A stretch of 52,885 nt of DNA, taken from positions 1 through 52,885 of the forward strand of contig CAYMOM010000001.1 in assembly GCA_964391995.1 (NCBI GenBank), given 5' to 3'. Source of the DNA: an uncultured Faecalibacterium sp. (GTDB taxonomy: Bacteria; Bacillota; Clostridia; Christensenellales; Aristaeellaceae). The notes under the pieces are model-generated. The model saw only the letters and a list, made by a program, of their open reading frames with translations, did no database searches and was not told where the DNA came from. Positions 31,597-39,645 of the stretch are shown in pieces (position 1 is the first letter of the stretch; each line of letters starts with the position of its first letter). Made by a program: the position numbers and the translations under genes.

Positions 31597-33017
31597 AGCA
31601 GCAGCGCTACCTGTTCAAAATGCTGGCACTGATCATGTTTGGCCTGTTCCTTCTGCTGGCAGTCTATGGCGCGTACAGCATCTTCACCTATGGCAACAGG
31701 TGGTTTTCCTTCAGCCGGAACCCCCGGGTCCGTGCCCAGAAGCAAACCGTCATCGCCGGCGATATTCTCGACAGGAATGGTGTGGTGCTGGCCACCACAG
31801 TGGACGGGAAGCGAGTCTACCAGGAGGACGAAAGCGCCCGCCGGGCCGTGGTTCACCTGCTGGGGGACAGCCAGGGCCAGGTTTCCAACGGTGTGGAAAC
31901 CTTCCAGACCCGCTACCTGTACGGTTTTGAAACCTCCCTTGGCGAGCGCATTGGCGCACTGCTGGCAGGGGAAACCCGCCGCGGCGATAACGTGACCCTA
32001 ACCATCGACAGCCGGCTGTGCACAGCCATCGCCCAGTCCTTCGAGCAATACCCCAAAACCCAGGGCAAAAAGGGCGCCGCTGTGGTGATGAACTACCAAA
32101 CCGGCGAGCTGATTGCCCAGATCAGCCTGCCCAGCTTTGACCCTATGAACATCACCGCCGCCACCGCTGCCGACCCGGGCCAGCCCTTCTGGAACAGGGC
32201 TACCCAGTCCCTTTACCCGCCGGGCAGCTCCTTCAAAATCATCACCGCCTCCTCCGCCCTGGAGAATATCCCCGGCGTGGAGGAGGACAGCTTCACCTGC
32301 ACCGGCGGCCTGGTGGTGCTGGGCCAGGCCATCCGGGATTACGGCGGCGCCATTCACCAGAGCCTGACCCTGCAGGAGGCCTTCAAAAAAAGCTGCAACA
32401 ATGTGTTTTCCCTCACCGCGCTGAACCTGGGTGACGAAAACCTGCGCCGCACGGCGGAGAGCTTTGGCTTTAACGATAATTTCCTTTTCCGCGACCTGGT
32501 GGTGGAAAACAGTTCCTATCCCACGGACAACCGTTCCCTGTTCGAGTTGGCTACAACGGGCATTGGTCAAAGCGCCCTGGGCGCCACGCCCATGCATATG
32601 TGCATGGTGGCTGCCGCCATTGCCAACGATGGCGTGATGATGGAGCCGCGCCTGCTGATGCAGGTCAGCAGCCCGGCAGGCAGCGTTCGCACCGCCTATC
32701 AGCCCAAGGTTTACCGCACCGCCGTCACACCCCAGGTTGCCGCCACCCTGCAGGCCTACATGGGCGATGTGGTTGTTTCCGGCACGGGCACCAGGGCAGC
32801 AGTAGACGGCCTGACCATCTGCGGCAAAACCGGCTCAGCTGAAAGCAGCCTGTCCGGCAACGCGGTTACCTACGGCTGGTTCGTAGGCTATATTGCCGAT
32901 AGCAGCCTGCCCTATGCCGTCAGCGTCCTGGTGGAATCCATCGAGGATGGCGAAGGCGGCGGCAGCACCGCAGCCCCCATCGCCCACGACATCTTTCAAT
33001 ACCTGAAAAACCAGTAA
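31593..33017 (+). CDS. Penicillin-binding protein 2 (class B transpeptidase)
   Basis: ORF-track 31278..33017 trimmed to M106 (MKQQRYLFKMLALIMFGL...). ATGA overlap with the ftsW stop, 8 nt after GAGGAGG. SxxK = SSFK, SxN = SCN, KTG = GKTGSAE. Confidence 0.9.
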   Translation: MKQQRYLFKMLALIMFGLFLLLAVYGAYSIFTYGNRWFSFSRNPRVRAQKQTVIAGDILDRNGVVLATTVDGKRVYQEDESARRAVVHLLGDSQGQVSNGVETFQTRYLYGFETSLGERIGALLAGETRRGDNVTLTIDSRLCTAIAQSFEQYPKTQGKKGAAVVMNYQTGELIAQISLPSFDPMNITAATAADPGQPFWNRATQSLYPPGSSFKIITASSALENIPGVEEDSFTCTGGLVVLGQAIRDYGGAIHQSLTLQEAFKKSCNNVFSLTALNLGDENLRRTAESFGFNDNFLFRDLVVENSSYPTDNRSLFELATTGIGQSALGATPMHMCMVAAAIANDGVMMEPRLLMQVSSPAGSVRTAYQPKVYRTAVTPQVAATLQAYMGDVVVSGTGTRAAVDGLTICGKTGSAESSLSGNAVTYGWFVGYIADSSLPYAVSVLVESIEDGEGGGSTAAPIAHDIFQYLKNQ

Positions 33018-33022
33018 CGCCG

Positions 33023-33162
33023 TCAGAGGGCGCTGCCCTCTGGACTCCCGCTTAAGGGATTTCATCCCTTAAGAATTCCAGGCTTGTGGATTGGAACTTG
33101 GGCGGTTCCCTTGCAGGGGTCACGGCGCACGGAGGGTGCGCCGCGACGCGGGGCAGCAGCGG
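33023..33162 (+). repeat. Modular intergenic hairpin repeat, copy 5 (A-B-C on plus strand)
   Basis: A module: TCAGAGGGC-GCT-GCCCTCTGG 33023..33043, 5 nt after the PBP2 TAA. B module: CTTAAGGGAT-TTC-ATCCCTTAAG 33051..33073. C module: GTCACGGCGCAC-ggagg-GTGCGCCGCGAC 33118..33146. Confidence 0.85.
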
Positions 33163-33173
33163 TTCGCTTCAAC

Positions 33174-33213
33174 AAAAAAGTCCGCTTTCCGTATGGAGAG
33201 CGGATCATTTTTT
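33174..33213. terminator. Bidirectional rho-independent terminator between PBP2 and metI
   Basis: AAAAAAG-TCCGCTTTCC-gtat-GGAGAGCGGA-tcaTTTTTT (10-bp stem including one G.T). Confidence 0.8.
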
Positions 33214-33248
33214 ATAAAGCTCATGCTGTACCACAGGCGCAGCTCACC

Positions 33249-33371
33249 TGCGTCGCGGCGCCCCTTTGCGCGCCGTGACCCACGCTTGGCTGTAACCCAG
33301 TCGGGCTGTCCCGCCCGGGATTCTTAAGGGTCTTTCGGCCCTTAAGCGGGGTCCAGGGGCAGCGCCCCTGG
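33249..33371 (-). repeat. Modular intergenic hairpin repeat, copy 6 (C-B-A on plus strand)
   Basis: C module: GTCGCGGCGC-ccctttgc-GCGCCGTGAC about 33252..33279. B module: CTTAAGGGTC-TTTC-GGCCCTTAAG 33323..33346. A module: CCAGGGGC-AGC-GCCCCTGG 33353..33371, abutting the metI stop (33372..33374). Confidence 0.85.
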
Positions 33372-34079
33372 CTAGTTTTTCAGGCGCTTGTCACATTTGG
33401 TGGCCAGTTTGGTGCCAATGGACTGGAAGAACTGTACCAGGATCACCAGGACAATCACCGCCAGGTACAGCACGGCGTACTTGTAGCGGTTGTAGCCGAT
33501 CATGATGGCAATCTTGCCCAGGCCGCCGCCGCCGATGGCGCCACTCATGGCGGTATAACCCATGATGGTGGTAATGGCCAGGGTGAAGTTGTTGATCAGG
33601 GACGGCACGCTTTCCGGCAGCATCACATGCAGAAGAATTTGCATGGGTGTGGCGCCCATGGACTGGGCCGTTTCGATAATGTTCGGGTTAATCTCCCGCA
33701 GGCTGCTTTCCACCAGGCGCGCCACAAAGGGAAAGGCTGCCACCACCAGCGGCACAATGGAGGCCACCGTGCCCACCGAGGTGCCCACAAGGGCCCGAGT
33801 CAGCGGAATGACCATGACAATCAGGATCAGAAAAGGAATGGAGCGCAGCAGGTTGATGATCACATTCAGTGTTTTCATCAGCCACTTGGGCAGGGGGCGC
33901 ACGCCCTTCTCCTCACCCGCCACCAGAACCATGCCCAGGGGCAGGCCGATCAGAATGGCGAACAGGGTGGAAATCAGGGTTACATACAGGGTGTCCCACA
34001 GGGCCAGGGGAAAATCGCTGCAGAAAATTTCCCACGCTTCCTGGAGTTTTTCCGGGGTAAAAGCGTTTTGCAGGTTCAT
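33372..34079 (-). CDS. metI: Methionine ABC transporter permease
   Basis: ORF track. Five-TM MetI-type permease. Coupling-helix region ETAQSMGATPMQILLHVMLPES. Confidence 0.9.
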   Translation of the reverse strand: MNLQNAFTPEKLQEAWEIFCSDFPLALWDTLYVTLISTLFAILIGLPLGMVLVAGEEKGVRPLPKWLMKTLNVIINLLRSIPFLILIVMVIPLTRALVGTSVGTVASIVPLVVAAFPFVARLVESSLREINPNIIETAQSMGATPMQILLHVMLPESVPSLINNFTLAITTIMGYTAMSGAIGGGGLGKIAIMIGYNRYKYAVLYLAVIVLVILVQFFQSIGTKLATKCDKRLKN

Positions 34080-35105
34080 TTACTGCACCTCCTTGGCTGC
34101 GTAGTCCACTTCAACAGAAACCGTCACATCCGGGGTTTCGCGGAGGAAGTTCACCGCCCGGGCCAGCTCGTCCGGGCCGCCGGGAATCTCCAGCAGGATG
34201 TACCCATACGCCCTGTCGCCCACGGAGCGGGTGGAAGCGCCCAGAATGCTGGCTGCAACGCCCACCTCCATGGCCATGCGGGCAATCAGCGGCTCCCGGG
34301 CGGCACGGCTGCCGTTGAAAATAATCCGCACACGCTGGCCATGCACATCGCTGATGGCAGCACTGTCCGCCATTTCGGGGTAGACCAGGTTCCGGGTGGC
34401 CTCCGCCTTGGGGTTGGCAAACACCTGGGCCACCTCGCCTTCCTCCACCACGGCGCCGTGCTCCAGGATGGCAACCCGGCTGCAAATCTCCTGCACCACG
34501 CTCATCTGGTGGGTGATGACGATCACGGTAATGCCCAGCTTTTCGTTGATGTCCCGGATTAACTCCAGAATCTGGTGGGTGGTTTTGGGGTCAAGGGCAC
34601 TGGTGGCCTCATCGCACAGCAGCACCTGGGGGTCGGTGGCCAGGGCGCGGGCAATGGCCACACGCTGCTGCTGGCCCCCGGAAAGCTGAGCGGGATAGGC
34701 ATTGGCCTTGTCCGGCAGGCCCACCAGGGCCAGCAGCTCCCTGCCGCGCTTTTCCGCCTCGGCCTTGGGCACGCCGGACAGCTTCAGGGGAAGAATCACA
34801 TTCTTCAGGCAGGTGCGCTGCATCAGCAGGTTGAAGCCCTGGAAGATCATCGTCACCTTGTGGCGCACGTCCCGCAGCTGCTTTTTGTTCAGGCTGCCCA
34901 GGTCCCGGCCATCCAGCAGGATGTTCCCCTCCGTGGGGCGCTCCAGCATGTTGATGCAGCGTACCAGCGTGCTCTTGCCGGCGCCACTCATGCCAATAAT
35001 GCCATAAATGTCCCCGTCATTGATGGTCAGGTTCACGTTTTTCAGCGCGTCCACCGGGCCGTCGGATGTGACAAAGCTCTTGGACAGGTTGCGAATCTCA
35101 ATCAT
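34080..35105 (-). CDS. metN: Methionine ABC transporter ATP-binding protein
   Basis: ORF track. Walker A GMSGAGKST, signature LSGGQQQR, Walker B LLCDEATSALD, C-terminal NIL/ACT-like domain. Confidence 0.95.
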   Translation of the reverse strand: MIEIRNLSKSFVTSDGPVDALKNVNLTINDGDIYGIIGMSGAGKSTLVRCINMLERPTEGNILLDGRDLGSLNKKQLRDVRHKVTMIFQGFNLLMQRTCLKNVILPLKLSGVPKAEAEKRGRELLALVGLPDKANAYPAQLSGGQQQRVAIARALATDPQVLLCDEATSALDPKTTHQILELIRDINEKLGITVIVITHQMSVVQEICSRVAILEHGAVVEEGEVAQVFANPKAEATRNLVYPEMADSAAISDVHGQRVRIIFNGSRAAREPLIARMAMEVGVAASILGASTRSVGDRAYGYILLEIPGGPDELARAVNFLRETPDVTVSVEVDYAAKEVQ

Positions 35106-35129
35106 CGGGTGCTCCTCCGTACACGCAAA

Positions 35130-35167
35130 GGCACACCGGCCTCCCGCAAAGGGACAGCCGGTGTGCC
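35130..35167 (-). other. Strong intra-operon stem-loop between metQ and metN
   Basis: Minus strand: GGCACACCGGC-(16 nt)-GCCGGTGTGCC followed by TTTGCGTGT. Probably sets the binding-protein to permease/ATPase transcript ratio. Confidence 0.55.
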
Positions 35168-35178
35168 CGCATTGGTCA

Positions 35179-36021
35179 TTACTCCACGGTCAGGGCAGTC
35201 AGGTCAGCCTGCTTGCCGCCGTACAGGCCCATGGGCTCCACGTGGATGGGGGCCACCACAACGATGCTGGTGCCGTTTTCCGCGTTGAAGTTCTCCTGAT
35301 AGGGGATATGAGCGAAGTAGTTGGCAAACACTTCGCCACTCTCCACCACCATGTTAGGCTGCACATAATCGGAGAATTCAATCACTTCCAGCTTCACGTC
35401 CTTCTCAGCCAGGATTTCAGCAGCCACGGCCAGAATCTGGGCATGGGGGGTAGGAGAAGCAGCTACGGTAATGGTTTTGCCGGCCAGAGCAGCGTAATCA
35501 ACGGTGGCGTCGAAGCCATCGGTAGGCTCAGCCACAACAGACACGGCAGCACCATTGTAGGTTTCGGCAATGTAGTCGGCAACCTTCTGGCTGTTCAGGG
35601 CGGCAGCCAGGGCCTTGGCCTCGGGGGATTCCTCGTTGCCGGCCTTCACGCACAGCACGTTGGAGTAGGGGGAATCAGCGCTCTCGATTACCAGAGAATC
35701 CTTCACGGGATTCAGGCCAGCGTCCAGAGCGAAGTTGTTGTTGATGATGGCGTAGTCCACGTCTGCCAGCACATTGGGCACCATAGCGGCTTCCACCTCA
35801 TAGAACTGGATGTTCAGGGGATTTTCAACAACATCGGCAGCAGTGGCGGTAACGCCAGCATCGGGGTTCAGCTTCAGGTAGCCATTGGCCTCCAGCAGCA
35901 GCAGGGCGCGGCCCTCGTTGGTGGGGTCGTTGGGCACGGCGATGGTCAGGCCATCGGCCAGGGCGGAAACGCAGGACAGAACCAGCAGGGCAGCCAGGAT
36001 CACGGACAGGAACTTCTTCAT
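35179..36021 (-). CDS. metQ: Methionine-binding lipoprotein MetQ/NlpA family, apparently circularly permuted
   Basis: ORF-track 35179..36072 (TTG) trimmed to ATG 36021 (MKKFLSVILAALLVLSCVSALADG...), after SD GAAGGAGAG. Lipobox LVLSC. VPNDPTNEGRALLLLE...SPYSNVLCVK...YNGAAVSVV comes first and ASPTPHAQIL...EFSDYVQPN...ANYFAHIPYQ...IHVEPMGLYG comes last, the reverse of canonical MetQ. Confidence 0.85.
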   Translation of the reverse strand: MKKFLSVILAALLVLSCVSALADGLTIAVPNDPTNEGRALLLLEANGYLKLNPDAGVTATAADVVENPLNIQFYEVEAAMVPNVLADVDYAIINNNFALDAGLNPVKDSLVIESADSPYSNVLCVKAGNEESPEAKALAAALNSQKVADYIAETYNGAAVSVVAEPTDGFDATVDYAALAGKTITVAASPTPHAQILAVAAEILAEKDVKLEVIEFSDYVQPNMVVESGEVFANYFAHIPYQENFNAENGTSIVVVAPIHVEPMGLYGGKQADLTALTVE

Positions 36022-36034
36022 AGCAATCTCTCCT

Positions 36035-36133
36035 TCATAAATTCGTTGCAGTGGGTGTTGGGCGGCAGGCAATGCATCGCATTCGTCTGCTTTCCCGGTT
36101 GGTTTGAACCAATCGTTTTGCTGCTCCGTTCAT
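36035..36133 (-). CDS. Candidate upstream small ORF 2 (32 codons) ending inside the metQ SD
   Basis: Own translation: SD AAAGGAG, 8 nt, ATG 36133; MNGAAKRLVQTNRESRRMRCIACRPTPTATNL; TGA 36037..36035 lies within TTTATGAAGGAGAG. Below the ORF-track size cutoff. Confidence 0.25.
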   Translation of the reverse strand: MNGAAKRLVQTNRESRRMRCIACRPTPTATNL

Positions 36134-36166
36134 GGGATGAGCTCCTTTCACGCCAGGATTTGGGAT

Positions 36167-36201
36167 AAAAAGAAGGGGAGCCTCCGATGAAGCTCCCCTT
36201 C
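36167..36201 (-). terminator. Intrinsic terminator / candidate attenuator in the metQNI leader
   Basis: Minus strand: GAAGGGGAGC (36201..36192), ttcatcggag, GCTCCCCTTC (36181..36172), TTTTTAT. Starts 32 nt after the stop of the Met-rich ORF. Confidence 0.7.
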
Positions 36202-36233
36202 TCATCCGGATGCAGCCTGCACCGTGGTGCGGC

Positions 36234-36332
36234 TCACCCGTCTATCTGAAAGCCCATCGAAGTTTGGACACGCAAACGCATGCACATGCTGCACATGCGC
36301 ATCATCATGGACATCATAGCGGTCTTCTTCAT
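36234..36332 (-). CDS. Candidate Met/Cys-rich leader peptide (32 codons, 10 Met, 2 Cys)
   Basis: Own translation: SD AAAGGAAAGGGGAAAG; ATG 36332; MKKTAMMSMMMRMCSMCMRLRVQTSMGFQIDG; TGA 36236..36234. Sits between a near-consensus promoter and an intrinsic terminator, upstream of metQNI. Confidence 0.45.
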   Translation of the reverse strand: MKKTAMMSMMMRMCSMCMRLRVQTSMGFQIDG

Positions 36333-36364
36333 GGTGCTTTCCCCTTTCCTTTGGTGATGGGCAC

Positions 36365-36393
36365 ATCATACCACACTCCCGGCGGCATGTCAA
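36365..36393 (-). promoter_or_regulatory. Near-consensus sigma-A promoter of the met leader
   Basis: Minus strand: TTGACA (36393..36388), 17 nt, TATGAT (36370..36365), with an extended TGTGG immediately upstream of the -10. Confidence 0.65.
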
Positions 36394-36473
36394 CTGTTTC
36401 TTGCAAAAACCGATTGTTTTTCTATTGTTCTTCCCAATCGTCCGGGAAACGCCCGGCAGCGGCGGGGTATGCC

Positions 36474-36508
36474 GAAAAAGCAGGCCTGCTGCATTGGCGC
36501 AGCAGGCC
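36474..36508 (-). terminator. Rho-independent terminator after SH3-repeat gene
   Basis: Minus strand: GGCCTGCTGC-gccaat-GCAGCAGGCC followed by TGCTTTTTCGG. Confidence 0.8.
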
Positions 36509-36515
36509 ACAGGGT

Positions 36516-38531
36516 TTATAGATCGGTGGTGGTAGCCACGCTGGTGGAGAGCACCGTGCAAACATTGCTTTCCACCTGGCCGGTATAGCCGCTGCCGGCG
36601 GCAGGAAGGACGATCAGCTTGATTTCCTTGCCCTCCATGTCCTTGGTAACGGTCAGGGTGCTGGCGGTGGAAACCTCCGTGCCGCCCACATACCAGTGGA
36701 AGGTGATGCTGGGGCAATTGACGGAAATGGTGGGTTTCAGCGTCACGCCGGGCAGCAGGGCGGAGAAGTTCAGGCTGACGGTGCCGGTGATGGCTTTCTC
36801 CTCCGCAGCGGCAGCCTTGACGGGTGCCGTCTTGGCGCTGGTCACAACGCCGGTGCAGCCGTTGGCGCCGGTGGCCTCTACCCAAAGGGCAAAGCCCAGA
36901 TCGCCCGTCTGGACGGTATAGGCCTTGGCGGTGCCCACCACAGCGCCATCGCCACGGATCCAGCGATAGGTAGCGGTAGTGCCGCTGGGCTGCAGGTTAG
37001 CCGTCAGGGTCTGGCCCACAGCAGGTGTGGTGCTGTCAATGGTCACACCCGTCAGGGGAGCAATGGTGGAGGCATTCTGCACCACGGCATAGGCGCTGGT
37101 GGCGCTGCCGCTGTAGCCATTGGTTCCGGTGACGCGCACGCGGATGCGCAGGCCCACATCGTCCGCCTTCAGGGTCAGGGTGGAGGTGGTTGCCAGCAGC
37201 AGGCCGTTGTCGGTCATCCATTCATAGGTCACATTGGCGCCAGTGGGCGTCACATTGGCCCACAGGGTATCGCCAGGGGCAGGAACAGCGCTGCTGAGGG
37301 TAACGCCGGTCACGGCCTGGGTGCCGGGCACAACGGTGGTCAGGTACTGGTTCATCATGTAGCCTTCCCGGGTGCCGATGCGAACACGGTCCCAGGTGGC
37401 GTTGTGCTTGAGCACCGTTACCTGGGTGCCCACGCCGTAGAAGCCGATGGCGGAATAGGACTTGCCGGCACCGCTGCGCAGGTACACGCCCTTGCCATTT
37501 TCACTGGTGACATAAGCGGTGTAGTTGTCACCGGCGGTACCGCCGCCGCCGGAAGGCTGCTTGACGGTCAGGAATTTGCTCATCATGTAGCCCTTTACGC
37601 CGTTGATTTCAATCCGGTTCCAGTCGCCCACCTGGCCCAGCACGGTGCAGCTGGTGCCCACGGGATACTGGGCCAGCACCTGGCTGCCCGTGGTGGCCAT
37701 GGCGCGCAGGTTCACACCCTTGCCGTTTGCGCTGGTAACATAGGCGGTATAGGTGACAAAGCCTGTTGTGCCGCTGCCGGAACCGCTGCCGGTGCCGGGG
37801 GCGGTGGTGGTCAGGAAGCAGCTCATCATATAGCCGGTTTTGCCGGAAACACGGATGCGGCTCCAGTTGTCGGAAACGCTCATAACGCTGACCTGGGTGC
37901 CCACAGGATAGGAGGCAATGGTGGCATACCCGGTGCCGGCACCGCTGCGCATGCGCACGCTCTTGCCGTTTTCACTGGTGACATAGGCGGTGTAGTCCGT
38001 ATCGCCGGTGCCCGGAGTGATGGGCGTGGAAGGCGTGGCGGGCGCGGTGGTGGTGAGGAACTCCGCCATCATGTAGCCCTTTTGCCCGTTGACGCTGATG
38101 TAGTGCCAATAGGTGCCGGCGGTGATGATGGTAACCTTGGTGCCCACGGCAAACTGGGCAGCAACGCCATACCCGGTACCGGGGCCGGTGCGCATGCGCA
38201 CACCCTTGCCATTCTTGCTGGTGACATAGGCTGTAACATCAGCCGTGCTGCCGGAGCCTTCTGAGCTGGCAGTCAGGTAGGTGCCGTACATGTAGCCCAC
38301 CTTGTTGTCCGGTGTGCGGACGTAATACCAGGCACCCTTGGTGCTCAGCACGGTGACGGTGGTGCCGGTATAGTAGCTGGAAATGGTGTCGCCGCTGAAG
38401 GAAGCCTCGTCCCTCAGGCGCAGCCAGCCGCCCTTGACCTTCATGGTCAGGGTAGCGGCCTGGGCCTGCTGTGCGGGCAGGGTGCCCACCAGCAGAAGCA
38501 GTGCCAAACAGAGTGCCGCAATACGTTTCAT
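36516..38531 (-). CDS. Secreted protein with six bacterial SH3 (SH3_3-like) repeats and three C-terminal Ig-like repeats
   Basis: ORF-track 36516..38549 trimmed to M7 (MKRIAALCLALLLLVGTLPAQQAQA...), after SD GGAGGA. Six units of the form YVTS.NGKGV.LR.G.G.......Y.VGT.V.V......W..I...G..GYMM..FLTT, followed by three roughly 85-aa repeats. Confidence 0.75.
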   Translation of the reverse strand: MKRIAALCLALLLLVGTLPAQQAQAATLTMKVKGGWLRLRDEASFSGDTISSYYTGTTVTVLSTKGAWYYVRTPDNKVGYMYGTYLTASSEGSGSTADVTAYVTSKNGKGVRMRTGPGTGYGVAAQFAVGTKVTIITAGTYWHYISVNGQKGYMMAEFLTTTAPATPSTPITPGTGDTDYTAYVTSENGKSVRMRSGAGTGYATIASYPVGTQVSVMSVSDNWSRIRVSGKTGYMMSCFLTTTAPGTGSGSGSGTTGFVTYTAYVTSANGKGVNLRAMATTGSQVLAQYPVGTSCTVLGQVGDWNRIEINGVKGYMMSKFLTVKQPSGGGGTAGDNYTAYVTSENGKGVYLRSGAGKSYSAIGFYGVGTQVTVLKHNATWDRVRIGTREGYMMNQYLTTVVPGTQAVTGVTLSSAVPAPGDTLWANVTPTGANVTYEWMTDNGLLLATTSTLTLKADDVGLRIRVRVTGTNGYSGSATSAYAVVQNASTIAPLTGVTIDSTTPAVGQTLTANLQPSGTTATYRWIRGDGAVVGTAKAYTVQTGDLGFALWVEATGANGCTGVVTSAKTAPVKAAAAEEKAITGTVSLNFSALLPGVTLKPTISVNCPSITFHWYVGGTEVSTASTLTVTKDMEGKEIKLIVLPAAGSGYTGQVESNVCTVLSTSVATTTDL

Positions 38532-38554
38532 GGTTCCATCCTCCATCAAAAGGT

Positions 38555-39346
38555 TTAGCCGTTGCCCGCCTCGCTTACGGAGAAGGAGTTGAGCATATAG
38601 TCACCATAGAGCATAAAGTCCTTGATTAAGTTCTCGTCATAGCGCAGTTCGGCCTGGTAGATGCTTTCCTCCGTGGCCAGCACCATGTACACCAGGCATT
38701 GGCCATCGGCAGCGGCCTTCAGCTGGCCTGCACCGATATATTCATCAATATTCGTTTCCGCGCCGGATGTTTCCTGCTTTTTGGCGGCAAGAATTTCTTC
38801 GGTGGAAAGTCCCCGGGGGTTTTCCAGCTGCTCCGCCAGGAAGGAAGCGCCCTCAATCTTGCCGGAAATGCCGCCTTCCGTGAAGGTGATGCTCTCCTCC
38901 CCAAAGACTGCGGGATACTGAATGGAGAAGCCCGCCGCGGCGTATTCCGTCATGGTAGCGGTAAAGTAGTCCTGGGCGGCCTGTTCCATCTCCCACTCCG
39001 CATCCAGGGCGAAGGATGTTACCTGCCAGCCTTCCTGGGCCTTGCGCAGCTCCACCACGGCCCGCTGGTCAAGCCACTGCACCTGGGCGTATTGCTCCGG
39101 GGTCAGCTTTTCCAGCTGATCCTCCGCCAGGTACACATCCCCCAGCAGGCGCAGGGCATCGCCGTCCTCATTCCAGTCCACCGCCATGGTACGAACGCCA
39201 CAGTAGCGGGTGTCGCCGTCCTTGCGCAGGGCCTGGGCCGCTGCGGCATCCACCAGGGGAAGAAGGGTCTCCACCGGGGTTTCCTCCGCCAGGGCGGCGG
39301 ACACCATCAGGGCCAGTGTCAGCAAAAGTGCCAGCCATTTTTTCAT
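38555..39346 (-). CDS. Hypothetical secreted protein
   Basis: ORF track. Signal peptide MKKWLALLLTLALMVSAALAEE. SD AAAGGGGGA. No family recognised. Confidence 0.55.
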   Translation of the reverse strand: MKKWLALLLTLALMVSAALAEETPVETLLPLVDAAAAQALRKDGDTRYCGVRTMAVDWNEDGDALRLLGDVYLAEDQLEKLTPEQYAQVQWLDQRAVVELRKAQEGWQVTSFALDAEWEMEQAAQDYFTATMTEYAAAGFSIQYPAVFGEESITFTEGGISGKIEGASFLAEQLENPRGLSTEEILAAKKQETSGAETNIDEYIGAGQLKAAADGQCLVYMVLATEESIYQAELRYDENLIKDFMLYGDYMLNSFSVSEAGNG

Positions 39347-39444
39347 GGGTCATCCCCCTTTGTCATTGGTTTCTGAACATACAACGAAGAATGAGCGAAT
39401 ATTCTTCCAGCCCCATTGCTTTTTTGTAAATATCGGGCGGCACT

Positions 39445-39645
39445 TTACGGATTTTCGTCAAACAGGGTGCACCCCATCTGCCTGAAGTGGCGGATGCGCT
39501 CCTCAATGTCCTCCGGCTGCACCTCAAAGCGGCGGGCCAGGCAGTCCACACAGAAGAATGCGGTTGCGCCCCGGTTAACCAGTTTCTTGGTCACAGCCAC
39601 CTCATCGCGGCTCAGCGGCCTGCCGCAGGCGGCGCAGTGCTCCAT
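39445..39645 (-). CDS. Small CxxC...CxxC zinc-ribbon-like protein (66 aa)
   Basis: ORF track. MEHCAACGRPL...FFCVDCLARRF. Its ATG overlaps the alpha-galactosidase TAA by 1 nt (TAATG). Confidence 0.5.
   Translation of the reverse strand: MEHCAACGRPLSRDEVAVTKKLVNRGATAFFCVDCLARRFEVQPEDIEERIRHFRQMGCTLFDENP

Follow-up and report, generated by a model that had tools for sequence, protein, structure and literature searches.

In Firmicutes, methionine importers are textbook cases of control by S-adenosylmethionine (SAM) riboswitches or T-boxes, and both the S-box (SAM-I) riboswitch and the methionine T-box lie upstream of methionine importer and biosynthesis genes. The methionine importer operon metQNI of an uncultured Faecalibacterium sp. 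(GTDB family Aristaeellaceae) raises the question of what senses methionine when neither is present. The stretch analyzed here, referred to as the window, comprises positions 1 to 52,885 of contig CAYMOM010000001.1 (assembly GCA_964391995.1). Across the whole 52.9-kb window, a search against Rfam 15 at the gathering score yielded 0 matches: no SAM riboswitch and no T-box. A search of positions 35900..36700 in E-value mode (up to 10) retrieved no SAM family, no T-box, and no leader family; its matches were sub-threshold small RNAs and microRNAs (terminator-like) at the hairpin described below and a few weak ones elsewhere. SAM riboswitches and T-boxes were also not found by Rfam in 40 related loci. 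The original prediction had seen neither an S-box nor a methionine T-box in this leader, and the element, which matches the covariance model of neither family, falls outside both classes. Instead, the metQNI leader is probably a ribosome-mediated transcription attenuator that senses charged elongator tRNA-Met (estimated probability roughly 0.78); the methionine-sensing attenuator proposed by the original prediction is supported by classic attenuator features that were recovered by computation.

A promoter, a Shine-Dalgarno (SD) sequence, a Met-rich open reading frame (ORF1), a terminator, and a second open reading frame (ORF2) had been proposed to precede metQ on the minus strand, and all of them are present there. 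The parts of the leader and its operon are the following:

36365..36393, minus strand: sigma-70-type promoter, with TTGACA at 36393..36388, a 17-nt spacer, and TGn-TATGAT at 36370..36365
36352..36341, minus strand: SD of ORF1, AAAGGAAAGGGG
36327..36344, minus strand: region 1, the SD and start codon of ORF1, GGGGAAAGCACCAUGAAG; putative anti-antiterminator
36234..36332, minus strand: ORF1, leader peptide of 32 codons with 10 Met and 2 Cys, MKKTAMMSMMMRMCSMCMRLRVQTSMGFQIDG
36317..36279, minus strand: candidate regulatory Met run of ORF1, codons 6-18
36248..36262, minus strand: region 2, predicted 5' strand of the antiterminator, CUUCGAUGGGCUUUC, in the 3' part of ORF1 (nt 71-85)
36206..36240, minus strand: hairpin P, a nested 35-nt stem-loop between region 2 and the terminator (-22.0 kcal/mol)
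36167..36203, minus strand: intrinsic terminator (regions 3 and 4) with a 14-bp G+C-rich stem, a 4-nt loop, and U5
36196..36182, minus strand: region 3 in its alternative pairing, GGAGCUUCAUCGGAG, comprising the distal 5' arm of the terminator, the loop, and the first bases of the 3' arm
36035..36151, minus strand: ORF2 module, with the SD GUGAAAGGAG at 36151..36142, the ORF at 36133..36035, and CGA-AUG at 36085..36080
33372..36036, minus strand: putatively regulated operon, with the metQ SD at 36036..36028, metQ at 36021..35179, metN at 35105..34080, and metI at 34079..33372

The promoter matches the consensus at 11 of 12 positions and has the TGn extension in addition; in a consensus scan, it is the sole promoter-like site at that score within 33000..39500. 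The same scan detected no promoter-like site between the terminator and metQ at its threshold, in agreement with the expectation that no separate promoter serves the operon. The G+C-rich hairpin followed by U5 is confirmed (GAGAAGGGGAGCUUCAUCGGAGGCUCCCCUUCU at 36203..36171, U5 at 36171..36167; -26.1 kcal/mol), but its stem has 14 pairs rather than the 10 bp initially assigned to it. The identity of the operon is supported by Pfam matches to NlpA (metQ), ABC_tran and NIL (metN), and BPD_transp_1 (metI), and the best NCBIfam matches of the three proteins are MetQ/NlpA, MetN, and MetI.

The most conspicuous property of ORF1 is its methionine content. All 10 ATG triplets of the ORF are in frame, and 8 of the Met residues fall within codons 6-18. 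In a six-frame scan of the window, only ORF1 reaches at least 5 Met per 13 residues (the runner-up has 4), and no further Met-run leader was found. The Met-codon leader is not a chance occurrence.

The same arrangement recurs in many related bacteria. A scan of one genome per species with the MetQ protein as query yielded 80 loci (39-88% identity; individual loci bear the prefix L below) from clostridial metagenome-assembled genomes (MAGs) and a few isolates, including Aristaeellaceae, Christensenellales-like bins, Oscillospiraceae, Gemmiger/Subdoligranulum, Anaerovoracaceae, and others. In at least 50 of the 80, a promoter, an SD, a Met-run ORF, a terminator, and a methionine importer operon co-occur; the SD-preceded ORF upstream of the operon has 18-40 codons and 5-8 Met per 13 residues (e.g., MMPMEMRMCCMCM, MMMGMDMSMAMRMH, and GMMMCMCSLLRQP). 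In operons arranged as metN-metI-metQ, it is metN and not metQ that follows the Met ORF, which indicates that the element tracks the 5' end of the operon. Among 50 leaders, a TTGACA-(15-19 nt)-TAnnnT promoter is located 56-111 nt upstream of the leader ATG in 49, and a hairpin with a U-tract follows 11-62 nt after the leader stop codon in all members of the first set (37 related leaders and the window). The pairs of the terminator stem covary (GC/AU/GU) in RNAalifold. In one locus (L062), the terminator lies further downstream than in the other leaders.

Conservation of the Met-rich ORF and of the terminator in orthologous leaders had been anticipated, and it takes the expected form: the flanking codons drift, whereas the in-frame Met run stays. 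Of the ATG triplets in the 50 leaders, 391 lie in the frame of the ORF and 26 outside it; this frame starts at an SD-preceded ATG in every case, and the encoded residues comprise 25% Met and 9.3% Cys. Alignment gaps in the coding part are multiples of three. The frame bias, the gap lengths, and the uniqueness of the run in the window together indicate that the Met codons are selected as codons. Outside the Met run, the mean column identity of the peptide alignment is 29%, and no conserved peptide motif was found in the alignment beyond the run itself.

Profile searches of a protein database with the leader peptides returned only 23 members (30-58 amino acids), all unnamed and without a Pfam domain. 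The three genomic contexts examined among these are all metQNI or metNI(Q), i.e., the methionine ATP-binding cassette (ABC) transporter. A scan of metagenomes for other contexts with the pattern ATGATGNNNATGNNNATGNNNATGNNNNNNATGNNNATG was discarded; its matches were all (ATG)n microsatellites or poly-Met runs, for the most part eukaryote-like. One of the related contigs (L019; CAVGBO010000030.1) is labeled Phocaeicola dorei and yet encodes a metQ of the clostridial type, with a leader peptide identical to those of L011, L012, and L042; the contig was probably misbinned or mislabeled in the public record.

These patterns bear on the alternative that the leader is an RNA-only switch, for example a riboswitch not yet described or a site that binds a protein or tRNA, and that its AUG-rich ORF is a by-product, e.g., of GCAUGC palindromes. 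The Met run can indeed form a conserved hairpin (columns 72-94 of A2, an alignment of 20 sequences from the clade of the window), and the 341-nt leader as a whole folds far better than shuffled sequence (z = -5.2). However, a structural by-product would explain neither the strong preference of ATG for a single frame that opens at an SD-preceded ATG in every leader nor the gaps in multiples of three, and the Met codons are interspersed with residues that vary freely from clade to clade. Moreover, the leader matches no Rfam family, and RNAalifold shows only hairpins and the terminator and no structure resembling a ligand pocket. An RNA-only switch is therefore very unlikely.

An attenuator requires an antiterminator, and the original prediction had found no convincing one by eye. 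Here, covariation, a test of cognate pairs, the geometry of the leader, and independence of the reading frame agree in indicating that a convincing antiterminator is present: region 2 (36262..36248) is complementary to region 3 (36196..36182), i.e., to the 5' arm and loop of the terminator, and the resulting helix encloses hairpin P. The latter begins 1 nt ahead of the last sense codon (GGG), covers the stop codon of ORF1, and appears in all folds of the window leader; most relatives have an equivalent hairpin inside the antiterminator. Two candidates considered earlier, the pairing of 36209..36201 with 36192..36184 and 36242..36231 as a mimic of the terminator arm, were rejected; in all folds, these bases form hairpin P, as its 3' and its 5' strand.

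In alignment A2, 95% of the cells of the region 2:3 helix are paired, and 4 of its 14 pairs have changed on both sides (C-G to U-A, G-C to U-A, A-U to G-C, and G-U to C-G). The observed values are matched by 0 of 500 shuffles for four of five measures, a control that somewhat favors the helix because the structure was derived from the same A2 sequences. When the partner is slid by 1-3 columns, pairing falls to 42-65%. In an alignment-free test, the best duplex was determined for each ORF tail with each terminator arm of 21 representative leaders from all clades. Cognate duplexes are 3.8 kcal/mol more stable than predicted from row and column means, whereas non-cognate duplexes deviate by a mean of only +0.19 kcal/mol (standard deviation, 2.4), and 0 of 20,000 permutations reached the observed cognate mean. 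Other clades achieve this pairing with quite different sequences, as in Gemmiger (UUGCUUCGGCAGCCUGUG with GCGGGGUGCCGAAGCGA; -26 to -29 kcal/mol). When the RNA open to a stalled complex was folded, starting 12 nt beyond the last Met codon and running to the end of the terminator loop, nearly all of 30 leaders had the region 2:3 helix around an intermediate hairpin as their minimum free energy (MFE) structure; the antiterminator of the window has -36.1 kcal/mol (z = -4.6).

The reading frame provides a further argument. The region 2 block is translated in frame 0 in 10 relatives (...LRWAFR-stop), in frame 1 in 8 (...SMGFQING-stop), and in frame 2 in 3 (...FDGLSA-stop), while the Met run stays in frame throughout. 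The preservation of these nucleotides across three frames points to a constraint on the RNA and not on the peptide.

The same observations speak to the possibility, already raised in the original prediction, that ORF1 forms an independent promoter-to-terminator unit. As a small-protein gene, it might encode, e.g., a Met/Cys-rich metal-binding or redox peptide, and metQNI would then be expressed by read-through or from an unrecognized promoter. Such a gene would be consistent with the strong promoter and the strong terminator (-26 kcal/mol), with MxM and MxxM motifs in ORF1 that resemble the Met motifs of Cu(I)-binding proteins, and with the annotation of 23 such peptides by public gene callers. 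However, none of these database proteins has a name or a Pfam domain, and the C-terminal half, with its nucleotides read in three frames, is not conserved as a protein. The nucleotides of the tail are instead complementary to the terminator arm, and this pairing covaries. In addition, the ORF is always located at the 5' end of a methionine importer operon, whatever the gene order, and no promoter-like site separates the terminator from metQ. Together with the low column identity outside the Met run, these findings do not identify a functional small protein and render an independent gene quite unlikely.

By contrast, the spacing of the elements fits a ribosome-mediated attenuator. In 48 leaders, a median of 17 nt separates region 2 from the last Met codon of the run (18 nt in the window), and region 2 ends a median of 2 nt ahead of the stop codon (10 nt in the window). 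A ribosome shields approximately 12-15 nt on each side of its P site (a footprint of about 30 nt). With this spacing, a ribosome stalled in the run would just clear region 2, whereas a ribosome at the stop codon would cover region 2 and open hairpin P. The leader thus combines its own promoter, an SD-led ORF of cognate codons, an intrinsic terminator, an antiterminator helix that uses the 5' arm of the terminator, and a suitable spacing, from which the Gemmiger clade departs.

In the proposed mechanism, transcription would start from the promoter at 36393..36365, and a ribosome would translate ORF1. When Met-tRNA is plentiful, the ribosome would pass the 8 AUG codons among codons 6-18 and reach the UGA, where it would cover region 2 and melt hairpin P; regions 3 and 4 would then form the terminator (36203..36167), and RNA polymerase would halt before metQ. 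When Met-tRNA is scarce, ribosomes would stall in the AUG run with their footprint short of region 2, which would be free to pair with 36196..36182 around hairpin P; the terminator would not form, and metQNI would be transcribed. In a leader without a ribosome, region 1 could pair with region 2, which would make termination the default. The region 1:2 duplex (-15.3 kcal/mol) is part of the no-ribosome MFE structure of the window leader, and all of its 14 bp can form in 6 of the 20 clade sequences (the window and 5 close relatives), with weaker pairing in the others; RNAalifold retains its GAAAGC:GCUUUC part. On this basis, region 1 may act as an anti-antiterminator that keeps the leader in a default OFF state. 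Stalling at AUG codons, a kinetic choice between the folds, and a response to methionine are what we infer, the last from the codon content and the identity of the operon.

Several observations weigh against this reading or complicate it. At equilibrium, the terminator fold is favored over the antiterminator fold (-49.8 vs. -39.3 kcal/mol), so the switch would have to rely on kinetics, as that of the trp leader does. Little covariation is seen in the region 1:2 helix. In silico, a single ribosome modeled at codons 11-18 leaves region 1 able to recapture region 2, and in the window only a ribosome at codons 6-7 or a second ribosome queued behind the first blocks region 1. Methionine limitation would also reduce initiation at ORF1 and push the leader toward its default OFF state. 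Single-sequence z-scores of the region 2:3 duplex against shuffles reach strong values in Gemmiger alone (-3.5 to -4.4) and are weak in the clade of the window (-0.5 to -1.4), and by themselves they would not establish an antiterminator. An attempt to mask and fold all leaders with a ribosome either at the Met codons or at the stop codon failed to separate the two states, because the free G-rich arm pairs with something in either state. In the Gemmiger clade, 1-7 nt separate the last Met codon from region 2 and about 30 nt separate region 2 from the stop codon, and the details of the presumed switch must differ there. Two of the later-found leaders (L058 and L073) have a Met ORF without a U-tract terminator, and nearly all relatives are represented by MAGs. 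In these two leaders, the Met-run ORFs upstream of metN run into a stem-loop (L058:849-1000 and L073:700-850); control in this clade may act at translation or via Rho.

If ribosomes stall in the leader, the signal could also be something other than methionine, such as cysteine supply, translation stress, a ribosome-targeting drug, or oxidized methionine. Cysteine is well represented among the leader residues and is interleaved with methionine in two clades, and Firmicutes are known to have leader peptides that sense drugs ahead of ABC transporter genes (PMC4191407). However, Met enrichment is common to all clades, whereas leaders of the Anaerovoracaceae type and those of L046 and L047 contain only 0-1 Cys. 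The Met run is the only conserved feature of the peptide, and the downstream genes encode components of a methionine importer and not drug exporters. With these genes downstream and no conserved arrest peptide, the leader does not qualify as a drug-inducible leader of the ermC or bmrB type. A ribosome-dependent attenuator with a signal other than methionine is hence unlikely. The interleaved Cys codons may add a sensitivity to cysteine to the proposed methionine attenuator, or they may only provide GCAUGC-type pairing within the Met run.

The second ORF presents a separate problem. In 35 related leaders, an SD-preceded ORF of approximately 14-25 codons is located between the terminator and metQ; carriers besides the window are L001, L004-L020, L023, L027, L031, L032, L034, and L049-L075. 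Its invariant feature is a CGA-AUG at or near its end, directly followed by UGA in 27 of the 35, with peptides that end in ...CNRESRRM or MERGPVYKQPGVRM before the stop. The 32 codons originally assigned to ORF2 thus hold for the window, but its relatives usually have the shorter form that ends in CGA-AUG-UGA. In the window, CGA replaces the UGA (CGA-AUG-CGA), which lengthens the ORF to 32 codons; its UGA (36037..36035) adjoins the metQ SD GAAGGAGAG (36036..36028), and the last two bases of the stop codon are common to both. The octamer CGAATG(T/C)G has about 37 copies in these leaders vs. about 10 in the remaining approximately 0.5 Mb (both strands). Upstream codons of ORF2 vary synonymously (CGG/AGG/CGC/CGA, GAA/GAG, GGT/GGC, and GTA/GTG), which suggests that ORF2 is translated. 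Counts of stop-free frames (33/33, 17/33, and 28/33 for the three frames) are uninformative in G+C-rich DNA.

No conserved pairing was detected by RNAalifold from ORF2 to metQ (-1.8 kcal/mol), and the intervening spacer is C-rich and G-poor (27.5% vs. 18.9%), with more C than G in 30 of the 35 leaders. ORF2 is missing from several clades (L002/L003, L026, L033, and the Anaerovoracaceae type), which identifies it as an add-on to the core attenuator. In L027 (2780-2970), a hybrid single ORF, MKAQFLGKPNQLMRMRMMQPNGRCIMQFCHARM, is Met-rich and ends in CGA-AUG-UGA, with a hairpin and U-tract terminator next to it; this suggests that ORF1-type and ORF2-type elements may be related.

A tentative and, on balance, doubtful proposal is that ORF2 constitutes a second, mechanistically distinct methionine checkpoint in the same leader. 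An inosine-wobble CGA in the P site would sensitize the decoding of the single AUG, and a ribosome that pauses there under low Met-tRNA would protect the transcript downstream of the terminator. Protection could be achieved by masking the unstructured C-rich spacer from Rho, as in tnaC, or by blocking 5'-to-3' decay, as in ermC. The Rho-dependent attenuation of the tnaC type and the stabilization of mRNA by a stalled ribosome of the ermC type serve as analogies for ORF2 only. Common to these systems and ORF2 are a short conserved upstream ORF with the critical event at its last codons and an unstructured C-rich RNA after the ORF that lacks an intrinsic terminator. However, the likeness, read from sequence alone, does not extend to sequence similarity, and ORF2 would answer to low methionine and not to a free amino acid or drug (TnaC attenuation is covered in PMC8429421). 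If the proposal were true, ORF1 and ORF2 would form a two-tier leader that combines a sensor based on a codon run with one based on a single codon.

The proposed attenuator shares much of its design with those of trpL, hisL, leuL, thrL, pheL, and ilvL of Escherichia coli and Salmonella. Like these, it comprises a promoter, an SD-led short ORF with a run of cognate codons, mutually exclusive antiterminator and terminator hairpins, and a stop codon placed such that the terminating ribosome covers region 2; default termination by 1:2 pairing would be a further likeness, although region 1 is putative here. It differs in that its regulatory codon, AUG, also serves for initiation, in that region 1 coincides with the SD and start codon of the leader itself, and in that an extra hairpin is nested inside the antiterminator. 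The genes under control encode an importer and not a biosynthetic pathway, and the leader neither resembles the enterobacterial leaders in sequence nor matches an Rfam leader family. Its hosts are Clostridia, where T-boxes and riboswitches are usual and leader peptides in Firmicutes have been noted as unusual (PMC2965389).

With S-box riboswitches and methionine T-boxes, the leader shares the position, the biological role, and the terminator/antiterminator output, and like a methionine T-box (e.g., that of Staphylococcus aureus; PMC3771891), it would report the charging of tRNA-Met and not the level of SAM. The proposed sensor, however, is the translating ribosome and not an RNA aptamer or a tRNA-binding leader. 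Leader-peptide attenuators of Firmicutes include a His leader before hisS paralogs in bacilli (PMC2965389) and the Leu-rich attenuator peptide of ilv-leu in S. aureus (PMC5794164). They too are amino-acid-codon ORFs with terminators that replace a T-box in Gram-positive bacteria, but they concern other amino acids and operon types and bear no sequence relation to the leader described here.

The statement in the original prediction that no Met-codon leader had been described was too strong, because Met leader peptides have been predicted in Campylobacter jejuni and Streptomyces lividans. In C. jejuni, MetL (20 amino acids, 3 Met) precedes metBA and was predicted from differential RNA sequencing (PMC3847290); its translation start has been seen by ribosome profiling, and a second ORF, CJsORF19 (MMYQMR), precedes the MetQ-like Cj0772c (PMC11955535). 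In S. lividans, a leaderless metL, MSTTSDRTPATEATTTPGARCMCRRMCAF, precedes metNIQ without a typical terminator (PMC8079986). These are likewise short Met-rich ORFs before methionine genes, two of them before importer genes, for which attenuation has been proposed. However, they have 3 Met codons each, compared with 5-8 per 13 codons here, belong to other phyla, and are single-genome or narrow predictions that come without a mechanistic test or antiterminator analysis, whereas the clostridial family comprises more than 50 species-level genomes and has a defined, covarying antiterminator. The tail of S. lividans metL (...ARCMCRRMCAF-stop) resembles the ...MCMCRMSMLRCAFK that precedes the stop in L015, L016, and L018, which could reflect convergence or common descent across phyla.

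The closest experimentally studied analog among sulfur amino acids is found in mycobacteria, where polycysteine short ORFs act as attenuators in which a run of Cys codons controls the downstream operon by cysteine supply (bioRxiv 10.1101/834739). These actinobacterial ORFs are leaderless and rely on Cys codons, whereas the clostridial leaders are SD-led, use Met and some Cys codons, and have an intrinsic terminator. No description of the clostridial Met-leader family was found in the literature searched. The concept of a Met-codon leader is thus not new, but the clostridial family, its breadth, the defined switch, and the second ORF were not found described.

The surroundings of the leader contain additional features. 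The gene upstream encodes a 677-amino-acid protein with five SH3_3 repeats and is closed by a separate terminator, an 11-bp hairpin with a U-tract (36483..36508, minus strand), which indicates that the promoter of the met leader starts a new transcription unit. Directly upstream of the -35 hexamer, most leaders have an A-rich tract (e.g., caaaaagtgTTGACA; 36394..36431 in the window and its equivalents in L001-L020). In the clade of the window, a conserved GAAAAACAAT(C/A)GG is located about 17 nt upstream of the hexamer, and in the window the conserved element upstream of the hexamer is doubled as ACAAT-N6-ACAAT. This A-rich/ACAAT region may be either an UP-element-like sequence or a transcription factor site. 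On Gemmiger-like contigs, a divergent gene for an Rrf2-family regulator (PF02082) lies about 350 nt upstream of the Met leader (L201:3232-3654 and L202:3232-3654). Rrf2 proteins include repressors of cysteine metabolism, and the gene may provide a second layer of control. In a Lachnospiraceae MAG (L066:3543-3710), a strong match (112 bits) to the TwoAYGGAY RNA family (RF01731) is located just downstream of a metQ homolog.

The family offers a widely conserved and experimentally tractable example of leader-peptide control, although the case rests on sequence analysis and the concept had been anticipated. A defined, covarying antiterminator would be a first for a Met leader. Because the leader ORF also starts with it, methionine is a special amino acid for this type of control, and a natural Met leader makes the interplay of initiator and elongator tRNA-Met testable. 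The leaders are in no RNA family library and their peptides are unnamed, so annotation misses them or calls them hypothetical proteins, and the conserved ORF2 with its CGA-AUG end may point to a further mechanism. In place of SAM riboswitches or T-boxes, many gut and rumen Clostridia, including the cultivable Gemmiger and Subdoligranulum, would use the translating ribosome as the sensor that controls their methionine importers.

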